Assembly: GCF_054482525.1 (NCBI RefSeq)
Contig: NZ_CM137006.1
Length of the DNA stretch: 64,000 bases
Strand: one strand, 5' to 3'
Position numbers: made by a program. Shown here piece after piece: positions 45,001-51,000 of the stretch; position 1 is the stretch's first letter, and every line of letters starts with the position of its first letter.

Positions 45001-48000
45001 AAAACGTCTTCGATACGAGATTACCAATCGGTGGAGCCATACGATACTGGGTCATCAAAGCTGCACTCGTCTGCGCACCATAAGCAGAGTTGAAGGCTCG
45101 GGCAAAGTCACTTCGTAATACCTCGTCAATTTCAGTGCGGGAGTTATTGATACCCAGCTTCCTCGCTAATGCCGCCTTGTGGGCATCTGAGTACAATGGA
45201 GGAAGCTGCATGTGGTCACCCACCAACAGGACACGCCGGGCTGACTGCATTGCAATGGCCAGCTCACTTGAAATCGAGCGCGCCGCCTCATCAATAATCA
45301 CCCAGTCATAGATATTCTCCTGAATGCCAATGTGCCCTTGTCCAATACCAACGCATGTGCCAGCCACTAACTGCCTGGAGCGCGAATAAAACTCGTCCAG
45401 GTTCACTCGCTCTCCCGACATAGCATCCTGCATATCACGGGATATTTTAGCTAATGCTTTTACTCGTCTTGCCTCATCAGGTCTGACACCATACTCTGTA
45501 CATAGCTTGGAAATCAGAATGTCTTTTGCTGCTGAGACCTTCACGCCATTGTCCAAGTTAATCCCATACTCCTGACTCAGCTTAGAGCGGATGGAAAAAT
45601 CGAGTTCGACTGCAATATCTTTCAGTTCATTGCTCTCATTTGAATCCGTTAAATTGTTAACCTGATAGAGCAATTTCTCAAGGTGATCGATTTGTCTGAA
45701 CAAATTGAGCTCTGCAAGAACAACACCCGAAATAAATCCCGGCTCAAGACCAATAGCTTCACTCAATGCTTCAACACGGTACTTAATTTCAGCATTGAAG
45801 AGTTCGCGCTTCTCTGTTGTGATTGCGTGTGAGTACACATCTTTTAAGCCAGGGGAAACGGCTCCCTCTCGGTTGCTGAACCTGACAACGTCCAACTCTG
45901 TACCAAGCCGGGAACAATGCTTTCTGATACGCTCGGCCGCTGTATTCACAGCCTCGTGTGACTGGCTGACCAGTAAAATGCGTTTGGTATTCTGTTTCTC
46001 GATCAGGTAGTGAACAAAGGCCGCGATGAACTCGGTTTTACCGGTCCCCGGTGGCCCCTGAAGCAGGGAGAGAGGGCCATTATTGACCAGTTTGTTAAAC
46101 GCCTTTCTTTGCTGTTCATTCAGACTGATCTTGTTTCCGTGCTGATCTTCACGGTCGTATCTGGCAAAATCGGTATCGCTGAGAGTGATACCATAATTTT
46201 GAGCCGCCTGTTTGCAGGATGGATCGAACAAGTCAATTAAGTCAGGCAGCACACTTTCTCGATCTAGGAGACGTTCCAGTGCGCGTTTACGTTTCTGATA
46301 AGATGCACGAGTCGGCCTTGTACGGAAGAAGACAATATCAGAATCCTTCAGCTTGAAGGCTGCTGAACTAACTTTGACAAGACGAATCTCTTTGAGCTCT
46401 GACTTCTTAAGTGACACTTCACCAATAAATCGCTCAACACCTTCCTGATCGACCTGTAAGGCTTCGACTTCATCACTACTTCTGAAAGCACCGAGTGGAT
46501 CAACATCAGCAGAGTAAGGGAGAAGAAGCTCTCCATGAGCATCTGCAACCGGGACCACTTCACCGCTGATTTCAATGTTTGGATAAGATTCTGTTTCAGT
46601 ATCCAGAATGGCGCGCCACAGTTTCACTGTTGGGATTTCCAGCACTTCTCTTAAAGAAGGTTCAAGCGTCTGCTTATCAAGCCTTGCAAAGGTATCTTTT
46701 AGCTGAAGCGTAAGTGGCTCTTGTACCTGAACATCTTCAGTTGCGGCAATCAACTCGATTGCCCGCGCAAAAGATTCTTCTTCATTAAGCAATACTGTCA
46801 ACGCCGACAGATCCTGCGGACTGCCGGGAATAATCTTGATGCCAGTATCAATTTCGAACTGGCTTTCATCAATATCTTGCTTACGAATTGTGACGCGAGC
46901 CCGTGGCCTGAAGCCATGAACCAGCGTCTTCTGATCTTTGTTGAACACCGCAGTAAAACTGCCACCAATCCCAGAGAAAGTCACATTTACTTCAGCTGGC
47001 GCTTTAGGATTTGACTTAACTTTGACATACAGATGCCCGTTATCAGGCAGAATAGAGATTATTTCATCGGCATTTCCTGCAGTAATCTCTATCAGGTCTT
47101 GTTCTGGCACCAGGTCATTACTATCTATCGCTTTTTTAAAGCGGCCTAAATCCTTAAACCCAAAAACCGGATCTTCCAGCTCTGCTCGGATAGCATTCGC
47201 GATTGTCGGATAAATGTCTGATTCCAGCCCCCATGACATGCCTAGCAACTCGCAGGACATCTTCATCACTGCATAGTTGTCACGTTCAAAAGAAGTACAA
47301 TTATCAATGTATTCAGGGCTGTAACTGTGATTTTTAGGTTCGTCACCGGACGGTGAAAAATCGGGGATATCGATGAGAAAAAGCAAACGGCTCTGTGTCT
47401 CAAATATCACATTGCCAGGGTGGATGTCCCCGTGAGAAACACCCAGACCATGTAAGTGCTCAACGGCGGCGACAAACTTACCAATGAGGTCGATTTTTTC
47501 ATCATCGGGGACCGCTATTTTATCCCAGGTTTCTCCCTGTACCTGATCCGTGACCATATATAGGCTTGATGATTTTGATGCGATACCGAATTCACGAATT
47601 TGAGGTAGATACGTTGTTTTAACTGAAGAAAGCCGCTCAACCTGCTTTAAAAACTTCAGAACCTGGAAATTAATTGACGGATTGAACCGCCCCGGGAATC
47701 CTGGAGACTAAACTCCCTGAGAAAGAGGTAAACAGGATGACTAAAAATACTCGTTTTTCCCCCGAAGTCCGTCAGAGGGCGATTCGTATGGTTCTGGAAA
47801 GTCAGGGCGAATATGACTCACAGTGGGCGGCAATTTGTTCCATTGCCCCAAAGATTGGCTGTACACCGGAGACTCTGCGTGTCTGGGTACGCCAGCATGA
47901 GCGGGATACCGGAGGCGGTGATGGCGGGCTCACCACCGCTGAACGTCAGCGTCTGAAAGAGCTGGAACGTGAAAATCGTGAACTGCGCCGCAGTAACGAT

Positions 48001-51000
48001 ATCCTTCGCCAGGCTTCCGCTTATTTTGCGAAGGCGGAGTTCGACCGCCTCTGGAAAAAATGATGCCACTGCTGGATAAGCTGCGTGAGCAGTACGGGGT
48101 CGGACCGCTATGCAGCGAACTGCATATTGCCCCGTCAACGTATTACCACTGTCAGCAACAGCGACATCATCCGGATAAACGCAGTGCCCGTGCGCAGCGC
48201 GATGACTGGCTGAAGAAAGAGATACAGCGCGTATACGATGAAAATCATCAGGTGTACGGTGTGCGTAAAGTCTGGCGTCAGTTGTTACGGGAAGGTATCA
48301 GAGTGGCCAGATGCACTGTGGCACGTCTCATGGCGGTTATGGGACTTGCCGGTGTTCTCCGGGGTAAAAAGGTCCGTACGACCATCAGCCGGAAAGCCGT
48401 TGCCGCAGGCGACCGCGTAAACCGTCAGTTCGTGGCAGAACGACCTGACCAGCTGTGGGTGGCTGATTTTACTTACGTCAGCACATGGCGGGGCTTCGTC
48501 TATGTGGCGTTCATCATTGATGTGTTTGCCGGATACATCGTGGGGTGGCGGGTCTCATCGTCTATGGAAACGACATTCGTGCTGGATGCTCTGGAGCAGG
48601 CGTTATGGGCCCGTCAACCGTCCGGCACAGTCCATCACAGTGATAAAGGTTCTCAGTATGTATCGCTGGCCTACACACAGCGGCTTAAGGAAGCCGGATT
48701 ACTGGCATCAACAGGAAGTACTGGTGACTCGTATGACAACGCGATGGCGGAGAGCATCAATGGCCTTTACAAAGCGGAGGTAATACACCGTAAGAGCTGG
48801 AAAAACCGGACAGAAGTGGAGCTGGCCACACTCACGTGGGTGGACTGGTATAACAATCGACGATTGCTGGAAAGGCTGGGCCATATCCCACCGGCAGAAG
48901 CAGAAAAAGCTTATTATGCTTCCATCGGAAACGATGATCTGGCAGCCTGAGTTCACAGATAAAACACTCTCCAGGAAACCCGGGGCGGTTCAGATCGTAT
49001 CCCTGTCCCCCAACATTCAGCCAAGCCTTCACGAGCCTTCCTTTCGAGATATAGACTTCTTTGTCGACTGTTTCGACCTGAAACTGAAAGCCATCGTCTT
49101 CCGGGTATTGACGAGCGTGATTGATAGCATGTCGGTAAGGGTCAAGCTCAGTATCATCAAATGTTGGAATATCCTTGCCAGCAGGTTCGGCTTGTTTCAG
49201 GGCATCAAAGAATTCTGTTGCAGAAGTGAATTTTGCGGCAACGGCATCCCGTAATACAGATGAATACCAGTGCTGGCTGTTTAGCATGTTGTCCTGTACT
49301 TTCTCCAGACTCTTTGGCGACATGCGCATACCGCTAAATAAGTGCCAGGCGACAAGGCCCAGAGTATGAACATCTTGCTGAAAAGGCGTAAGCTCGCCCT
49401 TATCAAGCATGTCTTTTACGTGGACTGCACCTACGGATAAAAGCTTACGGTAATCGCCAACCGTTCCGGCTGGCTGGTGGTAAGCCGAAATAAAGTTCGA
49501 AAGAGCAACTTCTTTTGAAGGTGAAATCCACAGACTGTGATCGGCGACATCCCTGTGCGCAATTTTCATCTCATGGAGATCACTAAACTTTGCAATGAGC
49601 AGTTTCACCACATTCAAGCGGTCCATATCAGAAAAGTTCTTACCATATTTTCCGATAAACTCATTAAACCGGACATGACCCGGCGGAACTTCGTAGACTT
49701 CGCTATACTCGGCCGTCACCTCGTCTTTCTGAAAACTCGTCAAAGACCTGAGACAGTGGTTATACAGGTCACGATTCTGGTGATTGATGTGCTGTAACAC
49801 TTCGCGCTCACGTGAAACAATCTGAGCTCGTCCTTCCGGGGTATTCGCTTTCGTTCCCGTTATATTTCTAAAATTCCATACTCTGAGTAGCGCTTCGCTG
49901 TTCGTTGATATCTCAGATTTTGCCAGATATTCTCGATACACCTTTTTAGGATGTTCGAAAATCATATCATTAGCTTCATAGCCATTAACTCTCAAGGCTT
50001 TTGGTGCCGTCTGAGGCCCTAGGAACAAATCATCGAAAAGATGGAAATCCTTGTTAAGAACCTTGGTAGCTGGGTGCGGTTTGAAATAGTTATTGAAGCT
50101 CCCGCGATCGGCAAACTTCAGGAAATCTTTTAACGAGATCGTATGGCGCCGTTGTTCCTCCGGCAGCGCGCTGAAATCTGCATTGCCGGTCATCACAACA
50201 AAAAAATGAACAATCGGGATATAGCCTTTGTTCGTAAAACGGTCTACCAGACGCTTGAGTTTTTTGTCCAGCATGAATTTTTTGCTACGAGTCACGCTTA
50301 CTGGCGAGCGCCCCATGTTCTTATCACCTTTAAACCAAGTATCTCCGCGTGCGGTTACAGGCTGATGGTTCCAGTCTTTCAGTTCAACAATGATCACGTT
50401 GCAGTGTGTTACAATAACTAAATCGAATTCCCCCTCTTTTTTTGCCTCAACAAATCGAAAACCTGCATAACCTTTCCAAGGGAACATTTCATTGCCGATA
50501 AAACCATAGCTTTTTAGCTGCTCACTAATTGAACCGCTACGGAAAGGCTTGTCAGGCTTAGATACGTTGACTGAAAAAGCAGCTTTTATTTTCTCGATAG
50601 CCAATACTTCCTGTTCTTGTAAGCCACCATCCCACATTTCTACTTCCAACGGTGTTCTCCTTAAATTTCAGTAAAAATAAGGTCATTTATTCTGGTCAAT
50701 ATGGCAGGTTTCGATGTTTATAGTTCTGAATACTATGGTGTTTTACACGTTCATTCTGGTTATTATACGTAGAAAAGAATTTATCGGGCAACGCCGAGAT
50801 GACGCGGCCCCGTTAAACCGTGTAGTGGTAGATGATGAGATCAGATACAGGGATCAACTGACGGTGAGCGCAGTCCCCACATTTTATCCGGAGTTTACCG
50901 CTATTCCCGGCTGCCATTCGTTAGCACAGGCCCGCAAGTACCCTGATTTGCCGCTGGTTTTGCTTTCCCATCGAAGGGCCCATACATCATCACGCCCGCG

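Follow-up and report, generated by a model that had tools for sequence, protein, structure and literature searches.

An IS629-type element in mkoA of a type I Mokosh operon, very probably placed by a single recent transposition

An insertion sequence that lies inside a coding sequence raises the question of how and when it arrived and what it interrupted. We addressed this for an element in a 64,000-nucleotide (64-kb) stretch of E. coli DNA (contig NZ_CM137006.1 of assembly GCF_054482525.1), referred to here as the window. The initial annotation had described a clean IS629 insertion that knocked out a candidate operon. The interrupted coding sequence proved to be one gene, mkoA, which encodes NERD, kinase and Upf1-like helicase domains and stands first in a type I Mokosh operon of two genes, mkoA-mkoB, located in an integrative island beside clpA on the E. 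coli chromosome. We conclude with high confidence that a complete and transposition-competent IS629-type element entered mkoA in a single simple transposition that was recent and specific to this strain and that likely nulled the Mokosh system.

Structure and naming of the inserted element

The boundaries of the element were determined from the sequence. The insertion sequence is complete at 1310 bp and occupies positions 47683-48992 on the plus strand, beginning with TGAACCGCCCC and ending with GGGGCGGTTCA. The two ends form a pair of 25-nt terminal inverted repeats, the left repeat (IRL, 47683-47707, plus strand) starting with TG and the right repeat (IRR, 48968-48992, plus strand) ending with CA, and the pair is complementary at 23 of 25 positions (92%) so that the element reads TGAAC...GTTCA. 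When the entire 64 kb was searched for the repeat allowing up to 3 mismatches only these two sites were found, against a chance expectation of 0.00. This size and these ends are those of the IS3 family, whose members are about 1.2-1.5 kb long with imperfect inverted repeats and 5'-TG...CA-3' termini. The length of exactly 1310 bp, both terminal repeats and the intact OrfA and OrfB that had been reported initially could all be read in the sequence.

Two uninterrupted ORFs fill the element. The first, orfA (47737-48063, plus strand), encodes the 108-aa DNA-binding part of the transposase and matches the NCBIfam IS3 profile, and the second, orfB (48060-48950, plus strand), encodes the 296-aa DDE catalytic part and is read in the -1 frame with respect to orfA. 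On the 369 positions of NCBIfam NF033516, OrfA covers 1-86 and OrfB covers 93-369, the latter with 315 bits at a cut-off of 160. The motifs WVADFTY, HHSDKGSQY and DNAMAES of the DDE context also occur, and with the profile coverage they point to an IS3-type DDE transposase. The exact OrfA sequence was found in at least 1000 contigs of the public collection. An ALIL frameshift-stimulating pseudoknot is predicted at 48018-48134 on the plus strand (Rfam RF01497, 120.2 bits with the gathering score at 50, covering the whole model from position 1 to 117), and the ALIL region contains a conserved slippery site, UAUUUUGC, at 48022-48029 and a second, an A6 run, at 48055-48060. The arrangement of orfA and orfB in 0/-1 phases with a predicted -1 frameshift signal is consistent with the ORF layout of the IS3 family. 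Frameshift fusion, copying out as a circle and a staggered cut of the target are the established mechanism of this family. By this mechanism the ALIL pseudoknot would promote a -1 shift of the ribosome, and the resulting OrfA-OrfB fusion would be the DDE transposase. A circular copy made from the element would then be inserted at a target whose two strands are cut 3 bp apart, and repair of these staggered ends would duplicate the GAT found at the insertion site.

The name IS629 was evaluated by comparison with public copies. Over 1310 of 1310 nt and without gaps the element was 97.4-97.8% identical to copies in GenBank phage records annotated as 'IS3 family IS629' or 'IS629 OrfA/OrfB', and it was 98.4% identical to a Shigella flexneri plasmid copy. 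Copies with 100% identity were present in at least 39 E. coli records and 14 plasmid records, at many different sites on both chromosomes and plasmids and in SMS-3-5, commensal, ExPEC and Proteus/Providencia plasmid backgrounds. The element is therefore a member of the IS629/IS1203 isoform complex, and the initial identification as IS629 held from end to end with the caveat that E. coli SMS-3-5 carries the exact 296-aa OrfB under the label 'IS1203 transposase orfB'. The isoform name rests on GenBank annotations, which conflict, rather than on the type sequences of IS629 (X51586) and IS1203 (U06468). The PGAP label for the transposase is 'IS3 family transposase' and nothing finer, and other members of the same 90% OrfB protein cluster are labelled 'IS629 transposase OrfB' or 'IS3-like element IS629 family transposase'. 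There is a substantial minority chance that the element is IS1203 or another named isoform such as IS3411 and not strict IS629, in which case the label would be imprecise and the biology the same. The SMS-3-5 label favors this, as SMS-3-5 also has a DNA copy 100% identical to the element, and so do the identities of only 97.4-97.8% to annotated IS629 copies of Stx phages and 98.4% to the Shigella flexneri plasmid copy. The IS629 labels within the OrfB cluster count against it, as does an identity of 97-98% to annotated copies, which exceeds the threshold of 95% usually applied to isoforms in ISfinder practice. The literature bears on both sides, since IS629 sub-types are 4-5% divergent and IS1203 and IS3411 are counted as IS629 isoforms (PMC3271280).

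The target site and the interrupted gene

Identical GAT triplets flank the element, the left copy at 47680-47682 and the right copy at 48993-48995. The target duplications of IS629 are reported to be 3-4 bp long (PMC3271280). A 3-bp match between the flanks has a 1/64 chance, and the empty site was therefore the decisive test. Removal of the IS and one GAT restored a single 1652-codon ORF. The rebuilt 1200-bp empty site was matched without a break at 99% identity or more in at least 319 complete E. coli genome records, where a match was a single piece spanning 80% or more of the query, and identity was 100% in all 40 matches listed. In the alignment with AH62, window positions 1-47682 corresponded to positions 1-47682 of the aligned AH62 sequence and window positions 48993-51313 to positions 47680-50000 of it, giving an overlap of exactly 3 bp, the GAT. 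A 1313-bp insertion, a few SNPs and small indels were the sole differences between AH62 and the window across 59.8 kb, and the intact mkoA of this near-isogenic genome showed 0 mismatches to the split gene. In elppa5 the same island was found with an empty site and an intact mkoA with 0 substitutions, and the identical IS variant was present elsewhere in that genome. The GAT is single-copy in the uninterrupted alleles and is a direct target-site duplication of the length expected for IS629. The rebuilt site, AH62 and elppa5 thus all bear out the duplication claimed by the initial annotation, which had proposed comparing the empty site in related genomes; those genomes carry a single GAT and an unbroken gene.

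The same alignments bear on two other origins of the arrangement, recombination of one IS copy with another and an assembly error that put an IS copy in the wrong place. IS629 is multi-copy in many E. coli, with a median of 4 places per genome having any, and such repeats are a classic source of rearrangements and mis-assemblies. However, the uninterrupted allele joins the two flanks directly, with an overlap of exactly the 3 duplicated bp. Neither inter-copy recombination nor mis-assembly is therefore expected to account for the locus, and we consider either hardly conceivable as compared to a simple transposition.

The element sits between the first and second base of codon 549 of the 1652-codon mkoA, in agreement with the initial claim of an insertion inside a coding sequence. 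The 5' fragment (48993-50637, minus strand) comprises codons 1-548 plus one base and encodes the NERD domain and a first kinase-like module. The 3' fragment (44366-47682, minus strand) runs from the rest of codon 549 to the stop and encodes the second kinase domain and the Upf1-like helicase. A 1063-codon downstream ORF starting at an ATG at 47557 was considered as a separate gene of the operon and was rejected, as this ATG encodes an internal Met of the intact MkoA and has no evident ribosome-binding site. With the IS removed, the rebuilt MkoA matched PADLOC PDLC03921 with 2212 bits over residues 1-1652 and profile positions 1-1603 of 1607. Pfam domains on the rebuilt protein were NERD, Pkinase (residues 577-657), AAA_11 (1068-1377, E = 4.2e-38) and AAA_12 (1404-1612, E = 3.1e-42), so that it has the Ser/Thr kinase and the COG1112/Upf1-like SF1 helicase of a type I Mokosh MkoA.

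The adjacent partner gene of type I Mokosh is also present. Directly downstream of mkoA lies an intact mkoB (42933-44369, minus strand) whose start overlaps the mkoA stop (ATGA). Its 478-aa product, like the rebuilt MkoA, gave a full-length PADLOC match, to MkoB (PDLC03923) with 503 bits (E = 1.9e-151), and is identical to the AH62 protein WP_000622487.1. A PLD-family nuclease domain was looked for in MkoB, and there was no Pfam PLD match, no HxK tripeptide and no sequence relative in the PDB. The operon was still accepted as Mokosh I because the MkoB of the verified system of E. coli SEC470 is also annotated only as 'HTH' by its authors. Upstream of mkoA a promoter-like site identified by consensus match (TTGCCC-18-TATAAT, 10/12) is located at 50762-50791 on the minus strand. 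This site is outside the IS and intact, and the same sequence occurs in the upstream DNA that was cloned with the SEC470 system.

Age of the insertion and recurrence of IS hits in mkoA

To date the event relative to other genomes we used the IS plus 800-bp flanks as a query. The identical insertion was found in 0 of 5426 complete E. coli genomes, and the five full-coverage matches all represented different insertion sites. The insertion is therefore recent and strain-specific. The closest relatives of the island, AH62, AH65 and elppa5 (99.9% to the left 25-kb query), all had an empty site, as did 266917_2, the closest genome at the right junction (99.2%). It is very unlikely that the insertion is instead old and fixed in its lineage as an ancient scar. 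The makeup of the searched collection leaves some room for an old insertion, as the 5426 genomes exclude the source strain and its close relatives. Against an old insertion, the two halves of mkoA have 0 substitutions as compared to the intact alleles of AH62 and elppa5, the two copies of the target duplication do not differ, widely shared copies of the IS match it at 100%, and both the four empty sites and the genome search point the same way. The initial view of a simple and probably recent event was upheld by this evidence.

Insertions in mkoA were not confined to this strain. In other genomes mkoA was independently hit by an IS629-type element, another IS3-family element, IS2 and IS100, and in an even sample about 3 of 53 full-length mkoA alleles were IS-split. 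Selection as the cause of these recurrent hits was rejected as unnecessary. We infer from a rough estimate that random insertion gives a similar frequency, and selection therefore need not be invoked.

The recurrence could also be read as regulation. The Mokosh helicase and its partner are similar to MOV10L1/PLD6, a pair that belongs to the anti-transposon piRNA pathway, and it could be proposed that mkoA is hit above chance since Mokosh is costly or antagonistic to mobile elements, with IS629 acting as a reversible off-switch and defence toggled by transposition and excision. We consider this general proposal highly improbable. For the present insertion, a selected reversible switch would mean that the IS turns a costly Mokosh system off and that precise excision, for example assisted by IEE, turns it back on. 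The perfect target duplication and undecayed flanks would allow precise excision to restore an intact gene, mkoA has been hit repeatedly by independent elements, and IS629/IS1203v is known to undergo high-frequency precise excision in the presence of IEE and transposase (bioRxiv 10.1101/2023.06.07.543989). However, no iee-like gene was noticed within the 64-kb window, most disrupted mkoA alleles are irreversible truncations, and the proportion of split alleles is close to that roughly estimated for IS elements landing at random in a dispensable gene of 5 kb. A selected switch is accordingly an improbable account of this locus, and a simple recent transposition remains the preferred reading.

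Consequences for Mokosh and comparison with known systems

The reading frame of the mkoA 5' fragment enters the IS and reaches a stop at 48832-48834, giving 548 native and 53 IS-encoded residues. MkoA would be truncated after residue 548 and carry a 53-residue IS-encoded tail, and the second kinase domain and the helicase would no longer be translated as part of MkoA. The 5' fragment with its promoter-like site may yield a 601-aa NERD/kinase-like protein. The insertion probably has a polar effect on mkoB, which is translationally coupled. A scan for promoters and terminators around the IS, covering outward transcription and polarity, gave counts that did not exceed those of shuffled sequence and showed no evident outward promoter. 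Mutants of the helicase ATP-binding site abolished Mokosh defence (Millman et al. preprint). With the helicase and the second kinase lost and mkoB subject to polarity, Mokosh would most likely be null in this strain, judging from its sequence. The knockout of a candidate operon that had been claimed initially would then hold in effect; what needed revision was the gene content, as the ORFs flanking the IS are the halves of the one gene mkoA in mkoA-mkoB.

Annotation should not treat the ORFs on either side of the IS (601 and 1063 codons) as separate genes. For phenotype prediction, the strain should be scored Mokosh-negative despite matches to both genes in PADLOC/DefenseFinder. For a system that is experimentally verified and mechanistically unexplained, the locus offers a clean knockout made by nature, and intact alleles that are near-isogenic to it exist in AH62 and elppa5. 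Together with the other IS629-type, IS3-family, IS2 and IS100 hits in mkoA, the locus is a minor further example of the known erosion of defence islands by IS elements. As a strain-specific knockout of an anti-phage system already described, the insertion is routine and of an ordinary, known kind, and mkoA::IS629 raises no new question.

By its sequence, the mkoA-mkoB pair is a close allele of SG199, the experimentally verified type I Mokosh system of E. coli SEC470, whose anti-phage activity is marked 'v' or 'Verified' in the supplementary tables (Millman et al. 2022). The proteins are of equal length (MkoA 1652 aa, MkoB 478 aa), with identities of 92.5% for MkoA and 98.2% for MkoB over the first 399 aa, the part that the supplement prints, and of 94.9% for the upstream DNA. 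Unlike SG199, mkoA here is split by the IS at codon 548/549 and the system is presumably inactive. The Mokosh subtype of H10407 differs in that its MkoB is 'HTH-PLD', whereas the MkoB described here and that of SEC470 are without a detectable PLD/HKD motif. The element itself resembles IS629 (IS3 family, IS3 group) of Shigella sonnei and E. coli O157:H7 and the isoform IS1203/IS1203v in its 1310-bp length, TG...CA ends, 25-nt inverted repeats, orfA of 108 aa and orfB of 296 aa in 0/-1 frames, ALIL pseudoknot and 3-bp target duplication, and it differs as a distinct sub-variant about 2.2-2.6% from the annotated IS629 of Stx and other phage records. Defence genes are known to be hit by natural IS transposition, as in 'Insertion sequence transposition inactivates CRISPR-Cas immunity' (Nat Commun 2023, PMC10359306). 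As in that case, an IS has entered the coding sequence of an immune gene and probably abolished it, and independent insertions in the gene occur across strains, whereas the target here is Mokosh and not the cas genes.

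Structure and identity of the IS629-type element

The element occupies window positions 47683-48992 (1310 bp), with TGAACCGCCCCGGG at its 5' end and CCCGGGGCGGTTCA at its 3' end, and is flanked by GAT triplets at 47680-47682 and 48993-48995. The terminal inverted repeats (47683-47707 and 48968-48992) are 25 nt each and match at 23 of 25 positions. The repeat sequence was found only twice in the 64-kb window, at the two element ends, with zero matches expected by chance, and the window contains one copy of the element. OrfA (47737-48063, 108 aa) and OrfB (48060-48950, 296 aa, -1 frame) are uninterrupted and span positions 1-86 and 93-369 of the 369 positions of the NCBIfam IS3 transposase model, with an OrfB score of 315 bits (cut-off 160). 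DDE-context motifs were found in the transposase. A full-length ALIL frameshift pseudoknot was detected at 48018-48134 (Rfam, 120 bits; gathering score 50). Directly 5' of its first hairpin, at 48022-48029, is the conserved UAUUUUGC of the family, and there is an A6 run at the orfA stop. In publicly annotated close relatives, the programmed frameshift is assigned either to the UAUUUUGC site or to the A6 run; both are intact here and the predicted OrfAB is 404 aa from either. The position, length, paired inverted repeats and intact OrfA/OrfB reported in the initial annotation could therefore all be read from the sequence.

The element aligned without gaps over 1-1310 at 97.4-97.8% identity to IS629 elements annotated in Stx-phage GenBank records ('insertion sequence: IS3 family IS629' or 'IS629 OrfA/OrfB'), which upholds the earlier assignment to IS629, the exact isoform label aside. 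An identical OrfB is named 'IS1203 transposase orfB' in SMS-3-5 and other members of the cluster are named IS629. Rump et al. describe IS629 sub-types as 4-5% apart, with IS1203 and IS3411 as isoforms (PMC3271280). Because of this literature and annotations naming cluster members IS629 or IS1203, the name IS629 is acceptable; the exact isoform label is tentative, as the annotations conflict. At least 39 E. coli records, at differing loci, contain this exact 1310-bp variant (100% identity), as do 14 plasmid records, Proteus and Providencia plasmids included; the variant is actively circulating.

The empty site and the age of the insertion

Matching 3-bp flanks prove little by themselves (1/64 by chance), and therefore the empty site was rebuilt by deleting the IS and one GAT. 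The minus-strand ORFs on either side thereby joined into a single reading frame of about 1650 codons. The rebuilt site (1200 bp) had an unbroken match in 332 records, with 331 of the 5426 complete E. coli genomes represented, and 319 of the 332 matched at 99% identity or above. In E. coli AH62, which carries a near-identical island with intact mkoA, positions 1-47682 of the locus aligned gap-free to window 1-47682 with 29 mismatches, and positions 47680-50000 were 100% identical to window 48993-51313. The blocks thus have exactly three bases in common, GAT. The flanking triplets are thus a true target duplication, as had been proposed, with a single GAT at the uninterrupted AH62 site; IS629 duplications of 3-4 bp are described by Rump et al. 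(PMC3271280). Over 59.8 kb the sole notable structural difference from AH62 was the 1313-bp IS plus duplication, and the interrupted gene had no mismatches. Strain elppa5 likewise has an empty site in an identical intact mkoA (0 differences in 4794 nt), and both its chromosome and a plasmid carry 100%-identical copies of the same IS at other sites; judged from these sequences, the elppa5 state plausibly resembles that before insertion.

The same insertion was absent from all 5426 complete E. coli genomes searched. Together with gene halves free of substitutions and a widely shared IS sequence, this points to a recent, strain-specific insertion, in agreement with the simple, recent transposition first suggested. 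Independent IS629-type copies were found in mkoA of NZ_AP045816.1 (target duplication AAC, window-equivalent 50059-50061) and of NZ_CP049198.1 and three other genomes (ACC, about 46454-46456), differing from the window copy at 30 and 36 positions, respectively. In other genomes, a distinct IS3-family element (83.5% identical, reverse orientation) lies in mkoA near 49672-49682, and IS2 and IS100 each independently break the gene. Among 352 mkoA-carrying genomes, at least 80% of the gene was retained in 311, and about 41 had only truncated remnants. As a rough estimate, this frequency corresponds to random insertion into a dispensable 5-kb gene, and selection is not claimed.

Other features of the island

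Of the 29 AH62 mismatches, spread over 47.7 kb, 21 sit in about 900 bp (window 5571-6459) of an Ag43/Cah autotransporter gene, which suggests a patch of local recombination or variation in a repeat region; elsewhere the island is nearly identical. Between this gene and a GTPase-family gene lies an IS102 sRNA match (7488-7724, minus strand; Rfam, 73 bits), in keeping with the yeeP-isrC-flu order known from CP4-44-type elements; the name of the sRNA derives from an intergenic sequence, not an insertion sequence. By collinearity with the AH62 annotation, 13375-21994 (plus strand) has the order hsdM-hsdS-darT-darG-hsdR, placing a darT-darG toxin-antitoxin/defence pair between hsdS and hsdR of a type I restriction-modification operon, and the island therefore has several defence modules besides Mokosh. 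Directly upstream of mkoA, a frameshifted fragment (about 50822-51157, minus strand) looks like what is left of a further conflict system; in relatives it is a pseudogene with the annotation 'TOTE conflict system archaeo-eukaryotic primase domain'.

Decayed IS elements, unlike the intact IS629-type copy, are scattered over the island: an IS600 transposase fragment (23066-23659), an IS1 pseudogene (near 57.9-58.7 kb) and a frameshifted IS200/IS605 tnpA (27392-28205, minus strand; AH62 annotation) beside strong Rfam matches to the sRNAs STnc490 (143 bits) and STnc100 (136 bits). The island is neighboured by phoH/efeB in AH62 and by clpA in the window and in 2013C-4538. A 54-nt direct repeat starting CCCCCTCACCGCCA (59547-59600 and 59727-59780, plus strand; 96% identical, 180 nt apart) reads as a putative tRNA-Ser gene 3' end plus terminator, and the two copies look like att-type duplications at the island boundary; ARAGORN found no complete tRNA in the window. 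Between the island end and clpA lies a minimal type I-F-like CRISPR remnant (59791-59870, minus strand) in which a 32-nt spacer separates one full 28-nt repeat (Rfam CRISPR-DR4, 50 bits) from a second, partial repeat of 20 nt, with no cas genes nearby. It is probably the known orphan array of the E. coli clpA-infA region.

The interrupted Mokosh operon

The target was also considered as two genes and this was rejected, as the intact allele is a single 4959-nt CDS (WP_001333439.1, 'AAA domain-containing protein'). The rebuilt protein is type I Mokosh MkoA over its whole length (PADLOC PDLC03921, 2212 bits, residues 1-1652), with Pfam matches to NERD (residues 53-135), a kinase-like region (270-446, a weak hit), Pkinase (577-657) and the Upf1-type helicase domains AAA_11 (1068-1377, E = 4e-38) and AAA_12 (1404-1612, E = 3e-42). 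The next gene, mkoB (42933-44369, minus strand; 478 aa, PADLOC PDLC03923, E = 1.9e-151), is intact and shares ATGA with the mkoA stop.

The interrupted mkoA spans 44366-50637 on the minus strand, and the IS lies antisense to it, between bases 1 and 2 of codon 549 (D548|P549). Translation from the native start is predicted to run into the IS and end there at 48832, giving 548 native residues and a 53-residue tail; this would sever the second kinase domain and the entire helicase from MkoA. For the 1063-codon ORF from 47557, the start codon is an internal Met, and no ribosome-binding site is evident. The promoter-like site 5' of mkoA is untouched by the IS, and therefore an N-terminal fragment may still be made. 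Polarity likely affects mkoB too, given its translational coupling and its position about 4.5 kb past the new stop. In the Millman et al. preprint, Mokosh defence is reported to be abolished when the helicase ATP-binding site is mutated. The proposed knockout of the operon thus probably holds in effect, with the target refined to one gene of mkoAB.

Taken together, the original observation is confirmed and its interpretation supported. The IS, its duplication length, the verified defence system and IS inactivation of defence genes are already known, with IS insertions into cas genes as a precedent (PMC10359306). The allele itself is new to the searched collection but amounts to strain polymorphism rather than a novel feature.

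The verified type I Mokosh system SG199 of E. coli SEC470 has a 1652-aa MkoA ('Kinase-Helicase') and a 478-aa MkoB ('HTH') (Millman et al. supplement). The window MkoB gave no PLD hit in Pfam, no HxK motif and no sequence relative in the PDB, and its match to the other, PLD-bearing MkoB model is confined to residues 12-248; the verified SEC470 MkoB, 98% identical, likewise has 'HTH' as its sole annotation by Millman et al. Compared to SG199, the window MkoA is 92.5% and MkoB 98.2% identical over the 399 residues printed in the supplement, and the DNA upstream is 94.9% identical.
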